From a virus, in IMG/VR virus record IMGVR_UViG_3300045988_099631, positions 48,492 to 112,491 of that record: DNA of 64,000 nt; one strand, 5' to 3'. Under the pieces are notes generated by a model that was given only the letters and a program-made list of their open reading frames with translations, had not been told where the DNA came from and made no database searches. Made by a program: the position numbers and the translations under genes. Shown here in pieces: positions 39,409 through 50,884 of the stretch (position 1 is the stretch's first letter; every line of letters begins with the position of its first letter).

Positions 39409-39954
39409 ATGCAGGATATAAGAATCCATCGGGGCGACATTTTCTGGGTTCGTCAGGACTATGCTGCTGTCGGTTCAGAAACGAGAAAGAATCGCCCAGC
39501 AATCATTGTCAGCAACGATAAGAACAATACATATTCCGAAACTGTAGAAATAGTTTATCTTACAACTGCCGAGAAAAAGCCGATGCCTACACACGTTTCC
39601 ATTGAAACGATGGGCAAGCAATCTACTGCGCTTTGTGAGGCTGTCTACACAGTTGACAAGGAACGTTTGGAAAACTATTTTTGCACGCTGACAGCTGACG
39701 AAATGAAACTTGTTGACCAGGCTGTTCTTGTCTCCCTAGGGCTTACCGCCACTCCGACCTGCATCGTAGGTGTATCCCAATCGTTGGAATCAGAAAAGGT
39801 ACGCGTTCCGCTCAACGAGCCATTCGGATTAGAAGACGCATATCGTGTGATTCAGAAGGAACGCGATACGTTGCTTGCACAGAAAGAAATCTATGAGAAG
39901 ATCTGCGCCGCTACGCTGCCGTGTTGGCCGAAGGAGGGTGAGTTGGGCGTATGA
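39409..39954 (+). CDS. MazF/PemK-family endoribonuclease toxin with a roughly 68-aa C-terminal extension
   Basis: RGDIFWV...GSETRKNRPAIIVSNDKNN...PTHVSI...ALCEAVYTVDKERL...ADEMKLVDQAVLVSLGL parallels B. subtilis EndoA. An extra C-terminal tail follows. No antitoxin ORF lies upstream. Confidence 0.8.
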   Translation: MQDIRIHRGDIFWVRQDYAAVGSETRKNRPAIIVSNDKNNTYSETVEIVYLTTAEKKPMPTHVSIETMGKQSTALCEAVYTVDKERLENYFCTLTADEMKLVDQAVLVSLGLTATPTCIVGVSQSLESEKVRVPLNEPFGLEDAYRVIQKERDTLLAQKEIYEKICAATLPCWPKEGELGV

Positions 39955-41051
39955 TTTATCTCGATCATGCTGCTACTTCGCCCCCACTTCAATGCGCAAA
40001 GATCGCCTTCAATGCAGCATCAACGGCAGCGTGGGGGAATCCAAACTCTTTACATTCTTTTGGGCAAAGTGCCAGAAATGCGTTGGAAGCTTCCCGTGAA
40101 GCTGTAGCGCAGTGCTTAAAGTGCGACTCAGATCAAGTGTTCTTCGTTTCCTCTGCAACAGAAGCTTGCAGGATTGCAATCACGAGAATGACGGAAGCAT
40201 GTAAAAAAATCTATGTAACGAAAATAGAACATGCAGCCGTAACCAGCATAACAGACCGCAAGGTATATAGTGACCGCCGGGATGGTAATCGTGGTTTCGT
40301 GCATATTCACACCAACAACGAAACCGGTGAAATCTATGATTTGAGAAGTGCCTTTTCAGGGTATGATTTGACGTTCTCCGACTGTACCGCAGCCATGGGG
40401 AAGCAAAAAATCAACTTCCGTGAAAGCGGAATAGACTTCATTTGCGGAGGTGGTCACAAGTTTGGTGCTCCGATTGGAATCGGCGTGTTGATCGCGCGAA
40501 ATCCGGAAGCAATCACAACGAATTTTCATTTTGGAACGCCTTCTGCTCCACTCGCAGCCGCATTTGCAGAAGCGTTAGTGTTCAGGACAGACCATATAGA
40601 AGAGTTCAAAAATGCAGCAGCCACCTTGCATGACCGCCTGATTGATGGTATCATGAACGAAGTACCGGACGCACAGCTTAATGGGCTGCTTTACAAGGGA
40701 AATGAAATCATGCAATCTCCGTACATTGCAAACGTTTCCTTCCCGAACATCGAGAACCACGCACTTGTCCTGCGTCTTGCGGCTGACGGATTGATGGTTT
40801 CATCCGGTGCGGCGTGTTCTAGCGGAGATAACGCCCCGTCCCGTGTGCTTCTCGCTTCCGGATATTCTGAGGAACGCGCACGTTCGGCCATCCGGTTCAG
40901 TTTCGATTACAAACTCGACCCGAATGCAAATGATATGGGCTATAACTGCGGGCTGAACCTCGAACGATATATCAAAATCGTTGATGACGCAGTAAAAATC
41001 GTGGCACGGAATGTGCGGGAAATGCGGGAAATCGTATCATGCAGAGGCTAA
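39951..41051 (+). CDS. class V aminotransferase-fold cysteine desulfurase (NifS/IscS/DndA-like)
   Basis: Contains LDHAATSP, GNPNSLHSFG, GGGHKFGAPIGIGVL (PLP Lys) and SSGAACSSGDNAPSRVL (catalytic Cys). It has a 4-nt overlap with the MazF-like gene. Confidence 0.85.
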   Translation: MIYLDHAATSPPLQCAKIAFNAASTAAWGNPNSLHSFGQSARNALEASREAVAQCLKCDSDQVFFVSSATEACRIAITRMTEACKKIYVTKIEHAAVTSITDRKVYSDRRDGNRGFVHIHTNNETGEIYDLRSAFSGYDLTFSDCTAAMGKQKINFRESGIDFICGGGHKFGAPIGIGVLIARNPEAITTNFHFGTPSAPLAAAFAEALVFRTDHIEEFKNAAATLHDRLIDGIMNEVPDAQLNGLLYKGNEIMQSPYIANVSFPNIENHALVLRLAADGLMVSSGAACSSGDNAPSRVLLASGYSEERARSAIRFSFDYKLDPNANDMGYNCGLNLERYIKIVDDAVKIVARNVREMREIVSCRG

Positions 41052-42302: not shown

Positions 42303-42340
42303 AGAACCGAGGGAGTCAATTATCCCTCGGTTCTCTTTTG
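42303..42340. terminator. bidirectional terminator between the convergent rightward and late leftward operons
   Basis: 12-bp perfect stem AGAACCGAGGGA-GTCAATTA-TCCCTCGGTTCT followed by CTTTTG. Confidence 0.75.
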
Positions 42341-47920: not shown

Positions 47921-50884
47921 TCATTCCGGCCAACTTGTAATTGTCGCGTTTGGGAAATCTACAACCGATACTGCGTTAATGGTCATTGTTCCATTGGTTG
48001 CAAGTGGCCGAGTGTAGCCTTGAATCAGATGTCGTTCGACCGGAGAACCTGGTTTGTCTGTCCGGACGATTTCAACAAGGTTATTCTCCGAGATGTGCAT
48101 CATCTGTATGCAAGAAATTGATACTGCCTTTTGTAAAACTGTTGCGCGTTTCAATTTCCACTCTGCCAAGTCACGGCACTGCGTTGTTGTGTAATACCCG
48201 GAAGCGGTTTCTCTGTACGTCTTTCTGCCTATGATATTAACGTTTGTATCACTTGCTGGGTCGAGATTCTGCGCACGTCCGGCAGCTTGCGGATTGTCAT
48301 CTTGCTTTTCTCCGAGAACAATATAGTCGTTGAACACTTCGGTGTTTTTTATCGTGTATGTTGTTCCAAGAAGTTGTGCTTCATCTTGTGAAAACCTCCA
48401 CAAAACAGGCTTGTTTGAATCCACAATATCATCTTGCGATGGGTCAATGCGGAGTGCTCCCGTTTGGTCATAACCAATCCAAGCGTTCACCATTTCTGAA
48501 AGCCCAAGGCATACGTCAGCGAATGTACCATCGTCACTGTCTACCCGAAGCGTATAGGGAGAATCCGTCAAGTTTGCTGTCGTTCCGTCCGGCAATGCTT
48601 GCGTTTTCCCTTTGTAATAGCTGGTAAATACGGGTGGAACATGGTCAACCAGATATCCGTTTCCCCTATCAAACTGCAAGATGGCTTCTATTGGCTTAAA
48701 GATATTTGTCCCAACTGGAACCTCGTATGTCGATTCAAGCCTTCCAAACAAGCTTCCATCAAGGTATGCCCACTTGTCAACCAGTGGAAGAGAAACCGTC
48801 CGGATAATTGGGTTGCGCGTTTCCTGCGGCTCCGCAATATAAAACACCCCCTGCTGGATGTAATACTCTGAACCGTCAGAGAGAACCAGCCCTTCATCAA
48901 TGGCGATTTGCTGCCCGAACCAGATGTTATTGACGTTGTAATCATATTCAGCGTCAACGTTGGAGAGCGTAACGTTTGCCGTTCTGCGTTGTCCATTCTG
49001 CAAATTACATGTGATGGTTCCGTCTTGGATAAACGTTCCACTTCGTTTGTTTCCTGGATTATTATCGATTGCAAACGCCGTGCTTCCGTCCGGTTGAAGG
49101 AAACGAAGTCTGCACAGTTTTGTAAATGATGTGCGGAGTTGGCTCATGTAGTCGTTCATGCGCCATGAAGATTCCATCATTGAACCCGGTTGAATGACCT
49201 GCTGTGGGCCCCATGTTGGGTATAGCGTAACTGCTGCATCCTCCGTATACAATCCACCGAGAGCATATACAGCTCCCCCACCTGTAGAAGTGGCCCATGC
49301 AGATTGCGCGTATCCAACTTTTGTGAAGAGTGCTCCTTCCAGAGAAAGAGGAACGCCTTTCACTTTTATTGCTGTTAGCACTGAACCGGTTCCATCGTTT
49401 CCGGGAGAATACGTTACGGGATACGTTTTCGACGGGTCTATCGTATTTTCTTTCCAGAACGGGTATAGCGTGATATCGGCATCTTGTGTGTACTGCCCGC
49501 CAAGCGCGTATGATTTTGCTCCGCCATCCGCAGTAGACCATCCGGTTTGCGTGTATCCTTCTCTTGTGAAAATAGCACCTTTCAGCGTAACTGCCGTACC
49601 GGCCGTCTTCTGCTGCGTTTGGTTTTCTCCAGTTCCATAGGCACCATGCAGGTATGAAATTGTGAACGTGGAACCAGCGGTCTTCGTTGCTTTTGCAATA
49701 AGGGTTATCGGTGCGGTGATGTCTGAGAACGTGTAAGTTTGGCTGCTTGAAACTTTCTGACCGTTACTATCGTACCAGCCGTCAAATTCAATAGTGGAAC
49801 CTGCTTCTGTTTCAAGCGTGCAGCTCACCGTTGCTGTGATTTGGGTCGTTCCGTCGTAGAAAATATATGGAAGACCCTTAACATCTTGACTCACAGACGC
49901 AACATTATCTGCTGCTACGACCGCTATTTCATATTTGTACCACTCGGCATACAGTGTCCAGTCGAACGTTTGGACATTAAACGGGGAACCCGGCGCAATG
50001 CCAAACGGCCCGCCACCTGCATTATCGACTGCCCACCATACGGATGCTGTATACCCGCTCCTTGAGGGTATCGTTTCGCTGACTATAACTTCTCCGTAGT
50101 CATATACGGTCTGCGAAGATGGTGTCGGGTAGCCACCATTCGCGTTATATGAAACTGTATGCCGCTGTAGTGGTTCCCACTGGGCTATGGCACTGGCATT
50201 CGAGTTTCCAACCTGAATTGTACCGCCAGGTTCTACATATCCAAGGGAAGTCCCGTATCCCTGAAAAATTTCCCATTTTACAAATCGGTATCCGGTTCTT
50301 TCTGGGATGTCGGTTGTTACAGTGATATAAGGCCCGTTTGCATCATATGTGAATGTTTCCTGCATCCATGGTTTAGAACTTCCACTTGTGTTGTAGTAGC
50401 TGAGTGTATAAGTTACTTCCTGCCACACGCAGTACAAATTCCAGTTTTGGTACATCCGAATACCCATGCCAACGTTAAACTGCGCTGACGTGGAATCCGA
50501 GTTAGTGCTATAGCCAAGGAGTTTGCTGGAGTATTTCCAAAAACCATCAGACGGGAGTGTATAGACACTGTTATATGCAGCCGTGTCATAGAAACTGCCT
50601 GTGCCGCCGTTCGCATCTATTTGAATCGAATAACCGGAATTGAAAGACAGCGGCCCCCAATAGGTTATGCCATCAATGTCATGGGCAAAGATCTCATACG
50701 GCTTTCCTCCAAGTTCAAGCCCAGTGATTGTCGCCTCAAAGAAATTTGTGGCATCAGTTGAAGTGATTTCTGCAATAACCGAGTTGTTAGAACGCAACTG
50801 ATATAAAATTTCAGTTGGAGCAGATGGGGTTGTCAGATTGACCGTAATAGCCTGTGCTTCGAGATTTACAATGTTTAATCCCAT
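47921..50884 (-). CDS. tail/baseplate protein with N-terminal Listeria-Bacteroides (InlB B-type) repeats
   Basis: 987 aa. Repeats such as HTVSYNANGGYPTP..GYTASVWW, FTISYLHGAYGTGEN..REGYTQTGWSTADGG..YPFW and YPVTYSPGNDGTG..KVGYAQSAWAT..LYPTW. The C-terminal half resembles a tail hub / Tal protein. Confidence 0.8.
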   Translation of the reverse strand: MGLNIVNLEAQAITVNLTTPSAPTEILYQLRSNNSVIAEITSTDATNFFEATITGLELGGKPYEIFAHDIDGITYWGPLSFNSGYSIQIDANGGTGSFYDTAAYNSVYTLPSDGFWKYSSKLLGYSTNSDSTSAQFNVGMGIRMYQNWNLYCVWQEVTYTLSYYNTSGSSKPWMQETFTYDANGPYITVTTDIPERTGYRFVKWEIFQGYGTSLGYVEPGGTIQVGNSNASAIAQWEPLQRHTVSYNANGGYPTPSSQTVYDYGEVIVSETIPSRSGYTASVWWAVDNAGGGPFGIAPGSPFNVQTFDWTLYAEWYKYEIAVVAADNVASVSQDVKGLPYIFYDGTTQITATVSCTLETEAGSTIEFDGWYDSNGQKVSSSQTYTFSDITAPITLIAKATKTAGSTFTISYLHGAYGTGENQTQQKTAGTAVTLKGAIFTREGYTQTGWSTADGGAKSYALGGQYTQDADITLYPFWKENTIDPSKTYPVTYSPGNDGTGSVLTAIKVKGVPLSLEGALFTKVGYAQSAWATSTGGGAVYALGGLYTEDAAVTLYPTWGPQQVIQPGSMMESSWRMNDYMSQLRTSFTKLCRLRFLQPDGSTAFAIDNNPGNKRSGTFIQDGTITCNLQNGQRRTANVTLSNVDAEYDYNVNNIWFGQQIAIDEGLVLSDGSEYYIQQGVFYIAEPQETRNPIIRTVSLPLVDKWAYLDGSLFGRLESTYEVPVGTNIFKPIEAILQFDRGNGYLVDHVPPVFTSYYKGKTQALPDGTTANLTDSPYTLRVDSDDGTFADVCLGLSEMVNAWIGYDQTGALRIDPSQDDIVDSNKPVLWRFSQDEAQLLGTTYTIKNTEVFNDYIVLGEKQDDNPQAAGRAQNLDPASDTNVNIIGRKTYRETASGYYTTTQCRDLAEWKLKRATVLQKAVSISCIQMMHISENNLVEIVRTDKPGSPVERHLIQGYTRPLATNGTMTINAVSVVDFPNATITSWPE

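Follow-up and report, generated by a model that had tools for sequence, protein, structure and literature searches.

MazF toxins are textbook two-gene systems. Among phages, CapRel-SJ46 and EzeT are fused toxin-antitoxins in which a toxin domain is joined to a C-terminal regulatory segment, and RegB of phage T4 is an endoribonuclease with a RelE/YoeB-like toxin fold that inactivates early mRNAs without an antitoxin. Here we analyse a stretch of 64,000 nucleotides of viral DNA, positions 48,492 to 112,491 of the IMG/VR record IMGVR_UViG_3300045988_099631 (the whole stretch is referred to below as the window). It includes, on the plus strand at coordinates 39409..39954, a MazF-like gene with an ATG start and a TGA stop whose 181-amino-acid product ends in a 68-amino-acid C-terminal extension. 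The branch of MazF proteins to which it belongs has dropped the antitoxin gene and has gained instead a conserved helix that is under selection. The interpretation that we prefer, tentatively and at a little short of an even chance, is that of a stand-alone, phage-adapted endoribonuclease of the MazF family in which the protein's own tail stands in for a separate antitoxin or regulator.

The MazF-like gene and its catalytic core

A ribosome-binding site, GAAAGGA (39393..39399, plus strand), can be read 9 nt 5' of the ATG. The initial annotation had recognised the open reading frame (ORF) as MazF/PemK-like, motif for motif, and profile searches, comparison with proteins of known structure and modelling all agree with it. 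Residues 8-108 match the Pfam family PemK_toxin (PF02452; E=7.2e-25, 87.8 bits against a cutoff of 23.1), and residues 2-126 match the 188-position profile of PHROG 1936, 'MazF-like growth inhibitor' (E=3.7e-34). The best match among PDB sequences is Staphylococcus aureus MazF (E=8e-17), and Bacillus subtilis EndoA/YdcE was also found (E=2e-12), each aligned over residues 6-115. The motifs RGD, GSE, RP, ND, PTHV, DK.RL and EM..VD are common to the window protein and the S. aureus and B. subtilis MazF proteins, and at the level of sequence this similarity is far above chance. The core, as delimited by the alignments, AlphaFold2, Foldseek and the substitution pattern described below, consists of residues 1-113 (39409..39747, plus strand). 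In an AlphaFold2 model built from 41 homologues its predicted local distance difference test score (pLDDT) is about 90. Foldseek aligned the modelled core to S. aureus MazF (4mzm/9g1y) with a template-modelling score (TM) of 0.82 and 40% identity, and the TM values to the S. aureus, B. subtilis and Mycobacterium tuberculosis MazF proteins were 0.79-0.88, placing the core in the SH3-like barrel MazF fold.

A loss of catalytic residues had been considered possible, but both are retained: opposite the catalytic Arg and Thr of the B. subtilis, S. aureus and Escherichia coli MazF proteins, the window protein has R29 and T52. The catalytic pair is Arg25/Thr48 in B. subtilis MazF and Arg29/Thr52 in E. 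coli MazF. Fifteen core residues, R29 and T52 included, are invariant among 43 diverse family members; the residues invariant in the family include R8, R29, P30, S35, N40, E47, T52, K56, P60, H62, C76 and E77. Since R29, T52 and other core residues do not vary across the family, catalysis appears to be under selection. Sequence, fold and catalytic residues thus all place the window protein in the MazF/PemK family, and it is predicted to have RNase activity. It would probably cleave host RNA, and possibly phage RNA, for takeover of the cell or for the timing of gene expression.

The invariance of the core also bears on the proposal that the protein binds rather than cuts. An anti-defence decoy of this kind could form mixed dimers with host MazF, or could offer an antitoxin-like helix to MazF-type toxins of the host, and would thereby block abortive infection by the host. 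Phages are known to target host MazEF. A 40% identity to Firmicute MazF would suit such a role, as would the occurrence in the family of tandem MazF-MazF fusions with a degenerate second copy. However, the catalytic Arg and Thr and several residues of the active-site region are invariant, which argues that catalysis is the selected function, and we regard a decoy as improbable.

A conserved helix on a flexible linker

The extension of 68 amino acids, noticed when the gene was first annotated, was recovered exactly as quoted and consists of two parts. Residues 114-140 (39748..39828, plus strand) form a variable, acidic linker that AlphaFold2 predicts to be disordered, with pLDDT values below 50 for residues 115-136, and that has no homopolymer tract in the window. 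Residues 141-172 (39829..39924, plus strand) form a conserved amphipathic helix, defined by the AlphaFold2 model (pLDDT 78-92), by an alignment of tails and by the substitution pattern; its lineage motif is KERDTLLAQKEIYEKICAATL. The helix motif of the family, ERDxYKxLYxxLL, appears in the window as KERDTLLAQKEIYEKIC. In full, the family motif is E-R-D-x-Y-K-x-L-Y-x-x-L-L-x-K, and this lineage reads KERDTLLAQKEIYEKICAA(A/T)LP.WPK. The ending of the tail, IYEKIC..LP.WPK with a conserved cysteine, is particular to the window lineage. The tail is acidic and aromatic, with a net charge of -3 in the window protein, and is tethered to the core by the flexible linker.

The ratio of nonsynonymous to synonymous polymorphism (pN/pS), calculated from 18 distinct alleles of the window lineage, was 0.11 for the core, 0.46 for the linker and 0.13 for the helix (residues 140-176), and the helix is therefore as constrained by purifying selection as the enzyme core. 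In the last five codons, which lie near the ribosome-binding site of the following gene, the ratio was about 1.

A large family of phage MazF proteins

Far from being unique to this gene, as it had seemed when the gene was considered by itself, the tail is a trait of the family defined by PHROG 1936. Its members share a layout in which the MazF core, ending in ...SLGL, is followed by a linker of very variable length and sequence and then by the amphipathic helix. A search of 5.8 billion proteins gave 129 homologues, nearly all of them 150-230 amino acids long, and IMG/VR includes at least 569 family loci. HMMER over 1.84 billion cluster representatives gave 12,129 matches, 976 of them at E<1e-30, and in most of the top 150 representatives the profile match runs through the tail. 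A loose pattern for the terminal motif was found in about 70% of the top representatives, and 92% of them have net acidic tails. The same layout is present in isolated Faecalibacterium phages, as gp83 of FP_Brigit (172 amino acids) and gp50 of FP_Lagaffe (169 amino acids). The tail is therefore a defining trait of a very large, already catalogued phage family, of which the window gene is an ordinary and uncharacterised member. The branch comprises about a thousand clusters at 50% identity, mostly from gut and lactic-acid-bacteria phages.

Single polypeptides with two MazF domains in a row were also found among the relatives (P0121, P0122, P0123, P0144, P0219, P0143 and P0127), one of which carries four. 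The second MazF copy of P0121-P0123 and P0144 is without the catalytic Thr or the Arg-Pro. These polypeptides are natural single-chain pseudo-dimers and do not have the ERDxYK tail.

Absence of an antitoxin gene and of a conserved neighbour

The initial annotation had stated that no MazE/PemI-like ORF lies upstream, and scans of both strands for ORFs, together with repeat and Rfam scans, bear this out. No MazE/PemI-like ORF is found near the MazF gene on either strand, the repeat scan detected no ToxI-type tandem array, and Rfam identifies only tRNAs and no candidate RNA antitoxin. A type III RNA antitoxin was rejected on the basis of the last two results. The one ORF that might have been a missed antitoxin, at 38264..38485, encodes a 73-amino-acid double-CxxC zinc-ribbon protein with a weak, sub-threshold match to the MqsA N-domain. 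The segment of about 400 nt around it (38202-38607) is represented by about 40 nt in close relatives and is a recent insertion or deletion. An ORF missing in close relatives cannot serve as a conserved partner, and it was rejected as an antitoxin.

Clustering of neighbouring genes revealed no flanking family common to 59 diverse family loci, and clustering of the flanking ORFs of 52 family loci beyond the window lineage gave no common neighbour either. The genes found beside the MazF gene elsewhere in the family include those for a PriCT primase, SSB, a D5-type helicase, a sigma factor, dUTPase, ParB and Dam, and in FP_Lagaffe those for a methyltransferase and a nucleoside deoxyribosyltransferase. 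The family is usually located in a replication or early module, unlike the window gene, whose surroundings are accessory and comprise genes for an integrase, an Ltp superinfection-exclusion lipoprotein, Rha and TnpB as well as tRNA genes, tRNA-Gln(UUG) being among those just upstream. The MazF protein would most likely be made together with other early or accessory phage genes. Without an antitoxin gene and with a tail that is not MazE-like, the locus does not qualify as one partner of a type II MazEF module.

These data can be set against the view that the protein is a classical toxin whose antitoxin acts in trans, either as a small phage protein or RNA encoded elsewhere or as the MazE of the host. 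The closest relatives of solved structure are Firmicute MazF proteins that do pair with MazE, and 1-2.5 kb upstream of the gene there is ORF-poor and partly very conserved non-coding DNA. On the other hand, no neighbour is conserved across the family, a ToxI-type array is missing, the sole antitoxin-like ORF (38264-38485) is missing from close relatives, and an antitoxin in trans would leave a conserved and selected tail unexplained. We therefore consider this explanation to have a low probability.

The immediate upstream neighbour is a gene for an HU/IHF-like DNA-binding protein (39077..39352, plus strand; Pfam Bac_DNA_binding, E=4e-28), which ends 56 nt before the MazF gene, the distance originally annotated. 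It is preceded by tRNA-Met (CAT) at 38975..39049 on the plus strand, detected by ARAGORN and Rfam, which opens the block tRNA-Met / HU / (MazF) / NifS. In the spacer between the HU and MazF genes a GC-rich hairpin with a 6-bp stem, GGGGCT-TCAC-AGCCCC, can be read at 39358..39373 (plus strand); no T-run follows it and the terminator scan did not call it. The plus-strand block with HU, MazF and NifS is closed by a strong terminator-like hairpin, a 12-bp stem followed by a T-run, at 42303..42334 (plus strand).

Possible functions of the tail

Canonical MazF proteins are active without such a tail, and the helix is hence best read as a regulatory or assembly module. We propose that the conserved tail serves as a built-in regulator of the protein, most likely acting on the MazF dimer by restraining or organising it. 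Two ways in which it might do so, autoinhibition and oligomerisation or partner binding, appear to us about equally plausible, each being a serious candidate that does not reach an even chance. Self-restraint is favoured by the lack of another conserved gene to bind, by the acidic and aromatic composition that resembles the ends of antitoxins, and by the flexible tether. The direction in which the tail regulates the enzyme, like the timing of its expression, is something that we infer.

Several results weigh against this interpretation. An antitoxin-like tail acting in cis had been among the initial suggestions, but a profile of the tail searched against all PDB sequences gave no antitoxin match, and hhalign assigned a probability of 0.1% to its relationship with B. 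subtilis MazE, that is, no MazE similarity. In the AlphaFold2 monomer of the window protein the helix is confident and its placement against the core is not (predicted template-modelling score, pTM, 0.58). The short-linker relative P0074 (143 amino acids, with an 8-residue linker) likewise has a confident helix and a pTM of only 0.69. BFVD models of phage PemK-like relatives align over their full length with a root-mean-square deviation of about 18 Å, which indicates that core and tail have no fixed arrangement with respect to each other. Certain relatives have long coiled-coil-like linkers that would keep the motif far from the active site and would favour oligomerisation or partner binding. 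Literature searches gave no experiment on any family member, and both RNase activity and toxicity are putative. A scan for k-mers (k = 4-6) on the transcribed strand, compared with Markov expectation, revealed no strand-specific avoidance of any short motif in phage transcripts; UACAU, for example, is not avoided, with 53 occurrences on the sense strand of the window, and the only k-mers found to be depleted are palindromes of the restriction-site type. The scan thus shows no means by which the phage would spare its own RNA and gives no clue to specificity. Finally, the overlap with the downstream NifS-like gene described below is conserved to about 46% MazF identity, so that co-expression with NifS is real, though a functional link is unlikely.

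Direct-coupling analysis of 237 full-length members (effective number of sequences, Meff, 181), aimed at contacts between helix and core, was too shallow, its top pairs being gap artefacts in the linker and termini. No split-gene relative, in which a separate small ORF downstream of the core gene would encode the tail motif, was found. In the tail-less L105 lineage the gene that comes next encodes a small membrane protein.

The self-contained nature of the protein would also be expected of a single-chain toxin-antitoxin dedicated to prophage defence or abortive infection. In the lysogen, the tail helix would then fill the groove in which the MazF dimer binds RNA, until a trigger such as cleavage of the linker by a protease or contact with a protein from an invading phage freed the core to shut down the cell, following the logic of CapRel-SJ46 and EzeT. 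The absence of an antitoxin gene agrees with this scheme, and so does a tail that is acidic, aromatic and helical like the neutralising ends of MazE-type antitoxins. The accessory region of the window, with its integrase, Ltp superinfection-exclusion lipoprotein, Rha and TnpB, points the same way, and some contigs with a 92%-identical copy are 151-313 kb long, compared with the usual 105-120 kb, and may be integrated prophages. Nevertheless, the tail has no homology to MazE, the helix is undocked in the AlphaFold2 models, and most family members are found in replication or early lytic modules and not in lysogeny regions. No close prophage copy was detected in 185,579 representative genomes, where the best match, 50% identical, came from a Lachnospiraceae metagenome-assembled genome, and PADLOC gave no match for the MazF gene as a known defence system. 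Core-only and frame-shifted alleles, moreover, are common as the consensus in relatives, which is hard to square with a lethal toxin in a lysogen. On balance a defence role of this kind seems unlikely, and a stand-alone phage RNase regulated by its own tail is preferred.

The adjacent NifS-like gene

The gene that follows (39951..41051, plus strand) encodes a class-V aminotransferase, a divergent cysteine desulfurase-like protein of the NifS/IscS type with 366 amino acids. As originally annotated, the two genes overlap by 4 nt in an ATGA arrangement: the ATG of the desulfurase gene starts at 39951 and the TGA of the MazF gene occupies 39952-39954. An AAGGAGG site before the NifS-like gene is located at 39931-39937 (plus strand), inside the end of the MazF gene. 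The protein matches Pfam Aminotran_5 (E=2e-32) and the NifS model TIGR03402 (E=8e-48), and is also matched by the SspA and DndA models; its scores with the NCBIfam NifS, DndA and IscS models are all far under the equivalog cutoffs. The pyridoxal phosphate (PLP) lysine (GHKFG) and the catalytic cysteine loop (SSGAACSSG) are kept. Between the EHxAV and NNETG motifs it is about 25-40 residues shorter than canonical NifS/IscS, and PHROG 12787 labels this phage desulfurase family 'unknown function'. No DndBCDE, SspBCD or thiolation partner domain was found among the 27 window ORFs scanned.

The order HU-MazF-NifS, with the 4-nt overlap (7 nt in two loci), was found in every contig of the window lineage and is kept down to about 46-50% MazF identity, in phage contigs of about 80-120 kb with an integrase. 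A survey of MazF/desulfurase adjacency, as proposed in the initial annotation, found the pair only in the window lineage, down to about 46% identity, and at more than 50 other loci of the family the gene is without a desulfurase nearby. The human-gut phage MT835520.1 (49566-56549) has tRNA-Met, HU and NifS in the same order as the window, its NifS being 36% identical to that of the window, and there is no MazF gene between HU and NifS. The MazF gene consequently looks inserted, which suggests that HU-NifS is the older arrangement. We propose that the MazF gene behaves as a mobile cassette of one gene, which in this lineage happened to insert between the HU and NifS genes. A linkage of the MazF gene to tRNA genes was considered and rejected, as none of 39 loci from other lineages has a tRNA within 3 kb of the gene.

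This distribution also decides how much weight can be given to a functional pair of MazF and the NifS-like desulfurase, in which the tail would dock the desulfurase or accept its persulfide, or in which RNA cleavage would be tied to tRNA thiolation. In favour of a pair are the ATGA overlap and gene order kept to about 46-50% MazF identity, the lineage's own tail ending IYEKIC..LP.WPK with its conserved cysteine, and the presence just upstream of tRNA genes including tRNA-Gln(UUG). But MT835520.1 has the other members of the block without MazF, the more than 50 other loci have neither a desulfurase nor a tRNA within 3 kb and have unrelated neighbours, a cysteine occupies the same helix position in lineages without NifS, and the window ORFs scanned include no thiolation or Dnd/Ssp partner. 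The pairing is very improbable as a system; the adjacency is an accident of insertion in this lineage, and a false lead is removed.

Homopolymer tracts in the linker of relatives

Long tracts of G or C are present in the core-tail linker of at least six lineages, at differing positions and in differing sequence contexts. In relatives of the window lineage ('LTAPP', L029-L041) the tracts are C6, C7 and C8, in the 'PVGGG' lineage (L095-L129) they range from G7 to G11, and in the 'DETPP' lineage (L085-L093) from C8 to C10; three further lineages have G10 (L097), C9/C10 (L094/L099) and C8 (L130). A G or C run of at least 7 was found within the linker-tail segment of about 260 nt in 36 of the 80 loci. 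This amounts to 1.73 runs per kb, about 150 times the density of the phage DNA on either side (0.012 per kb, from about 430 kb).

The tract length varies among near-identical contigs from different datasets and sets the reading frame, all three frames having been seen. In the lineage with G tracts, G9 yields the full-length protein (8 loci), G7 and G10 a core-only protein of about 118 amino acids from the MazF start (3 loci), and G8 and G11 the core with an Arg-rich tail (6 loci). The downstream coding sequence of the tail is intact in all nine out-of-frame copies, with identity to the in-frame relatives at the protein level, and the C-tract variants of the window lineage likewise keep it intact. 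Frame-shifted alleles explain about 14 clusters of about 177 amino acids with apparently 'swapped' tails. The pattern fits reversible slippage, either as phase variation or as transcriptional slippage, and length errors in the assemblies are a possible alternative; the existence and placement of the tracts are independent of such errors. The window gene itself reads ACC GCC ACT CCG ACC at the tract position (about 39748-39765), and the window has no G or C run of 7 or more and no A or T run of 9 or more anywhere. The full-length form is therefore fixed in the window gene.

Taken together with the tail, the tracts could mean that the helix is a cis-acting antitoxin or regulator and that the junction makes a phase-variable, self-contained toxin switch, with a restrained full-length RNase and an unrestrained core-only RNase. 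Phages of this family would have evolved a hypermutable G/C tract at the core-tail junction repeatedly, and a switch of this type is not known from any toxin-antitoxin family. A phage population, or one infected cell by way of slippage, would then make both forms, and the window gene would be the 'locked' full-length form. We hold this more elaborate version to be doubtful. Should the tracts be real at the DNA or RNA level, they would represent a new way of diversifying the regulation of a toxin.

Other features of the window

A non-coding element of about 145 nt is found at 37661-37805 of the window and in relatives (5120-5264 of L010 and 2165-2218 of L137, the MT835520.1 locus), often directly 3' of a tRNA. 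It is 95-98% identical in phages whose neighbouring genes are only 66-73% identical. About 75 nt at its core are invariant, and its hairpin varies, with compensatory changes. Rfam gave no match for the element, which may be an uncharacterised phage small RNA. Two adjacent inverted-repeat pairs (one of 19 nt, 79% complementary, and one of 15 nt, 87% complementary), located at 36800-36831 and 37846-37910, flank a stretch of about 1 kb with few ORFs, immediately upstream of tRNA-Gln.

The TnpB/IS605 OrfB gene occupies 28877-29980 on the plus strand, and in four relatives (L004/L005/L007/L008) 1459-2589 on the minus strand. Its position and orientation relative to the integrase differ between the window and the relatives, and the element has probably moved within this phage lineage. 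At 25937-27295 on the minus strand, opposite to its neighbours, a gene encodes a 452-amino-acid protein with a phage endonuclease I domain and a C-terminal HIRAN domain. Palindromic sites of the restriction type are strongly depleted in the window: GATC was observed 150 times against 277 expected, and GGWCC, CCWGG, CCGCGG, CTGCAG, ATGCAT, GTCGAC and CTCGAG are also depleted. This depletion fits evasion of restriction-modification systems.

Comparison with known systems

The family is already catalogued, and the name 'MazF-like growth inhibitor' given to PHROG 1936 is an annotation only. In a search of the full-text literature, phage pemK/mazF genes were mentioned at the level of annotation and no functional study was found; the conserved tail, the lack of an antitoxin and the tracts at the junction appear to be undescribed. 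Whether the helix serves in self-inhibition, in assembly or in docking of a host factor, its role would show how phages use a suicide RNase without killing their own infection, and work on it could yield a compact, self-regulated RNase tool.

The window protein resembles the Firmicute MazF/EndoA proteins (S. aureus 4MZM; B. subtilis 1NE8, 4MDX and 4ME7) in fold and in 30-40% identity over residues 6-115. Unlike the genes for cellular MazF/EndoA, its gene has no adjacent mazE and is part of a phage operon, and unlike cellular MazF the protein carries a 68-amino-acid extension with a disordered linker and a conserved helix. The LEQ of cellular MazF is replaced in the phage family by family-specific invariant residues such as C76-E77. 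Other members of PHROG 1936, such as gp83 of FP_Brigit, gp50 of FP_Lagaffe and gp086 of Lactobacillus phage ATCC 8014-B2, are 47-52% identical to it in the core. The window lineage differs from them by the tail ending IYEKIC..LP.WPK and by its placement, which is between the HU and NifS genes instead of within a replication module.

With CapRel-SJ46 and EzeT the likeness would be one of logic only, that is, a phage-carried toxin domain with a covalent C-terminal segment and no separate antitoxin gene. The toxin families are unrelated, and the tail of the window protein is a single helix on a flexible linker instead of a folded domain. In the same way, RegB of T4 belongs to another fold family and has no sequence relationship to the window protein, and provides a conceptual precedent for a phage RNase with a toxin fold as a factor for takeover or timing. 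Finally, the relatives resemble contingency loci, the phase-variable genes, in that their G7-G11 and C6-C10 tracts vary in length and change the frame, whereas the window gene is without a tract. They differ from contingency loci in that the tract follows the catalytic domain, so that what it switches is the tail and not the whole protein.

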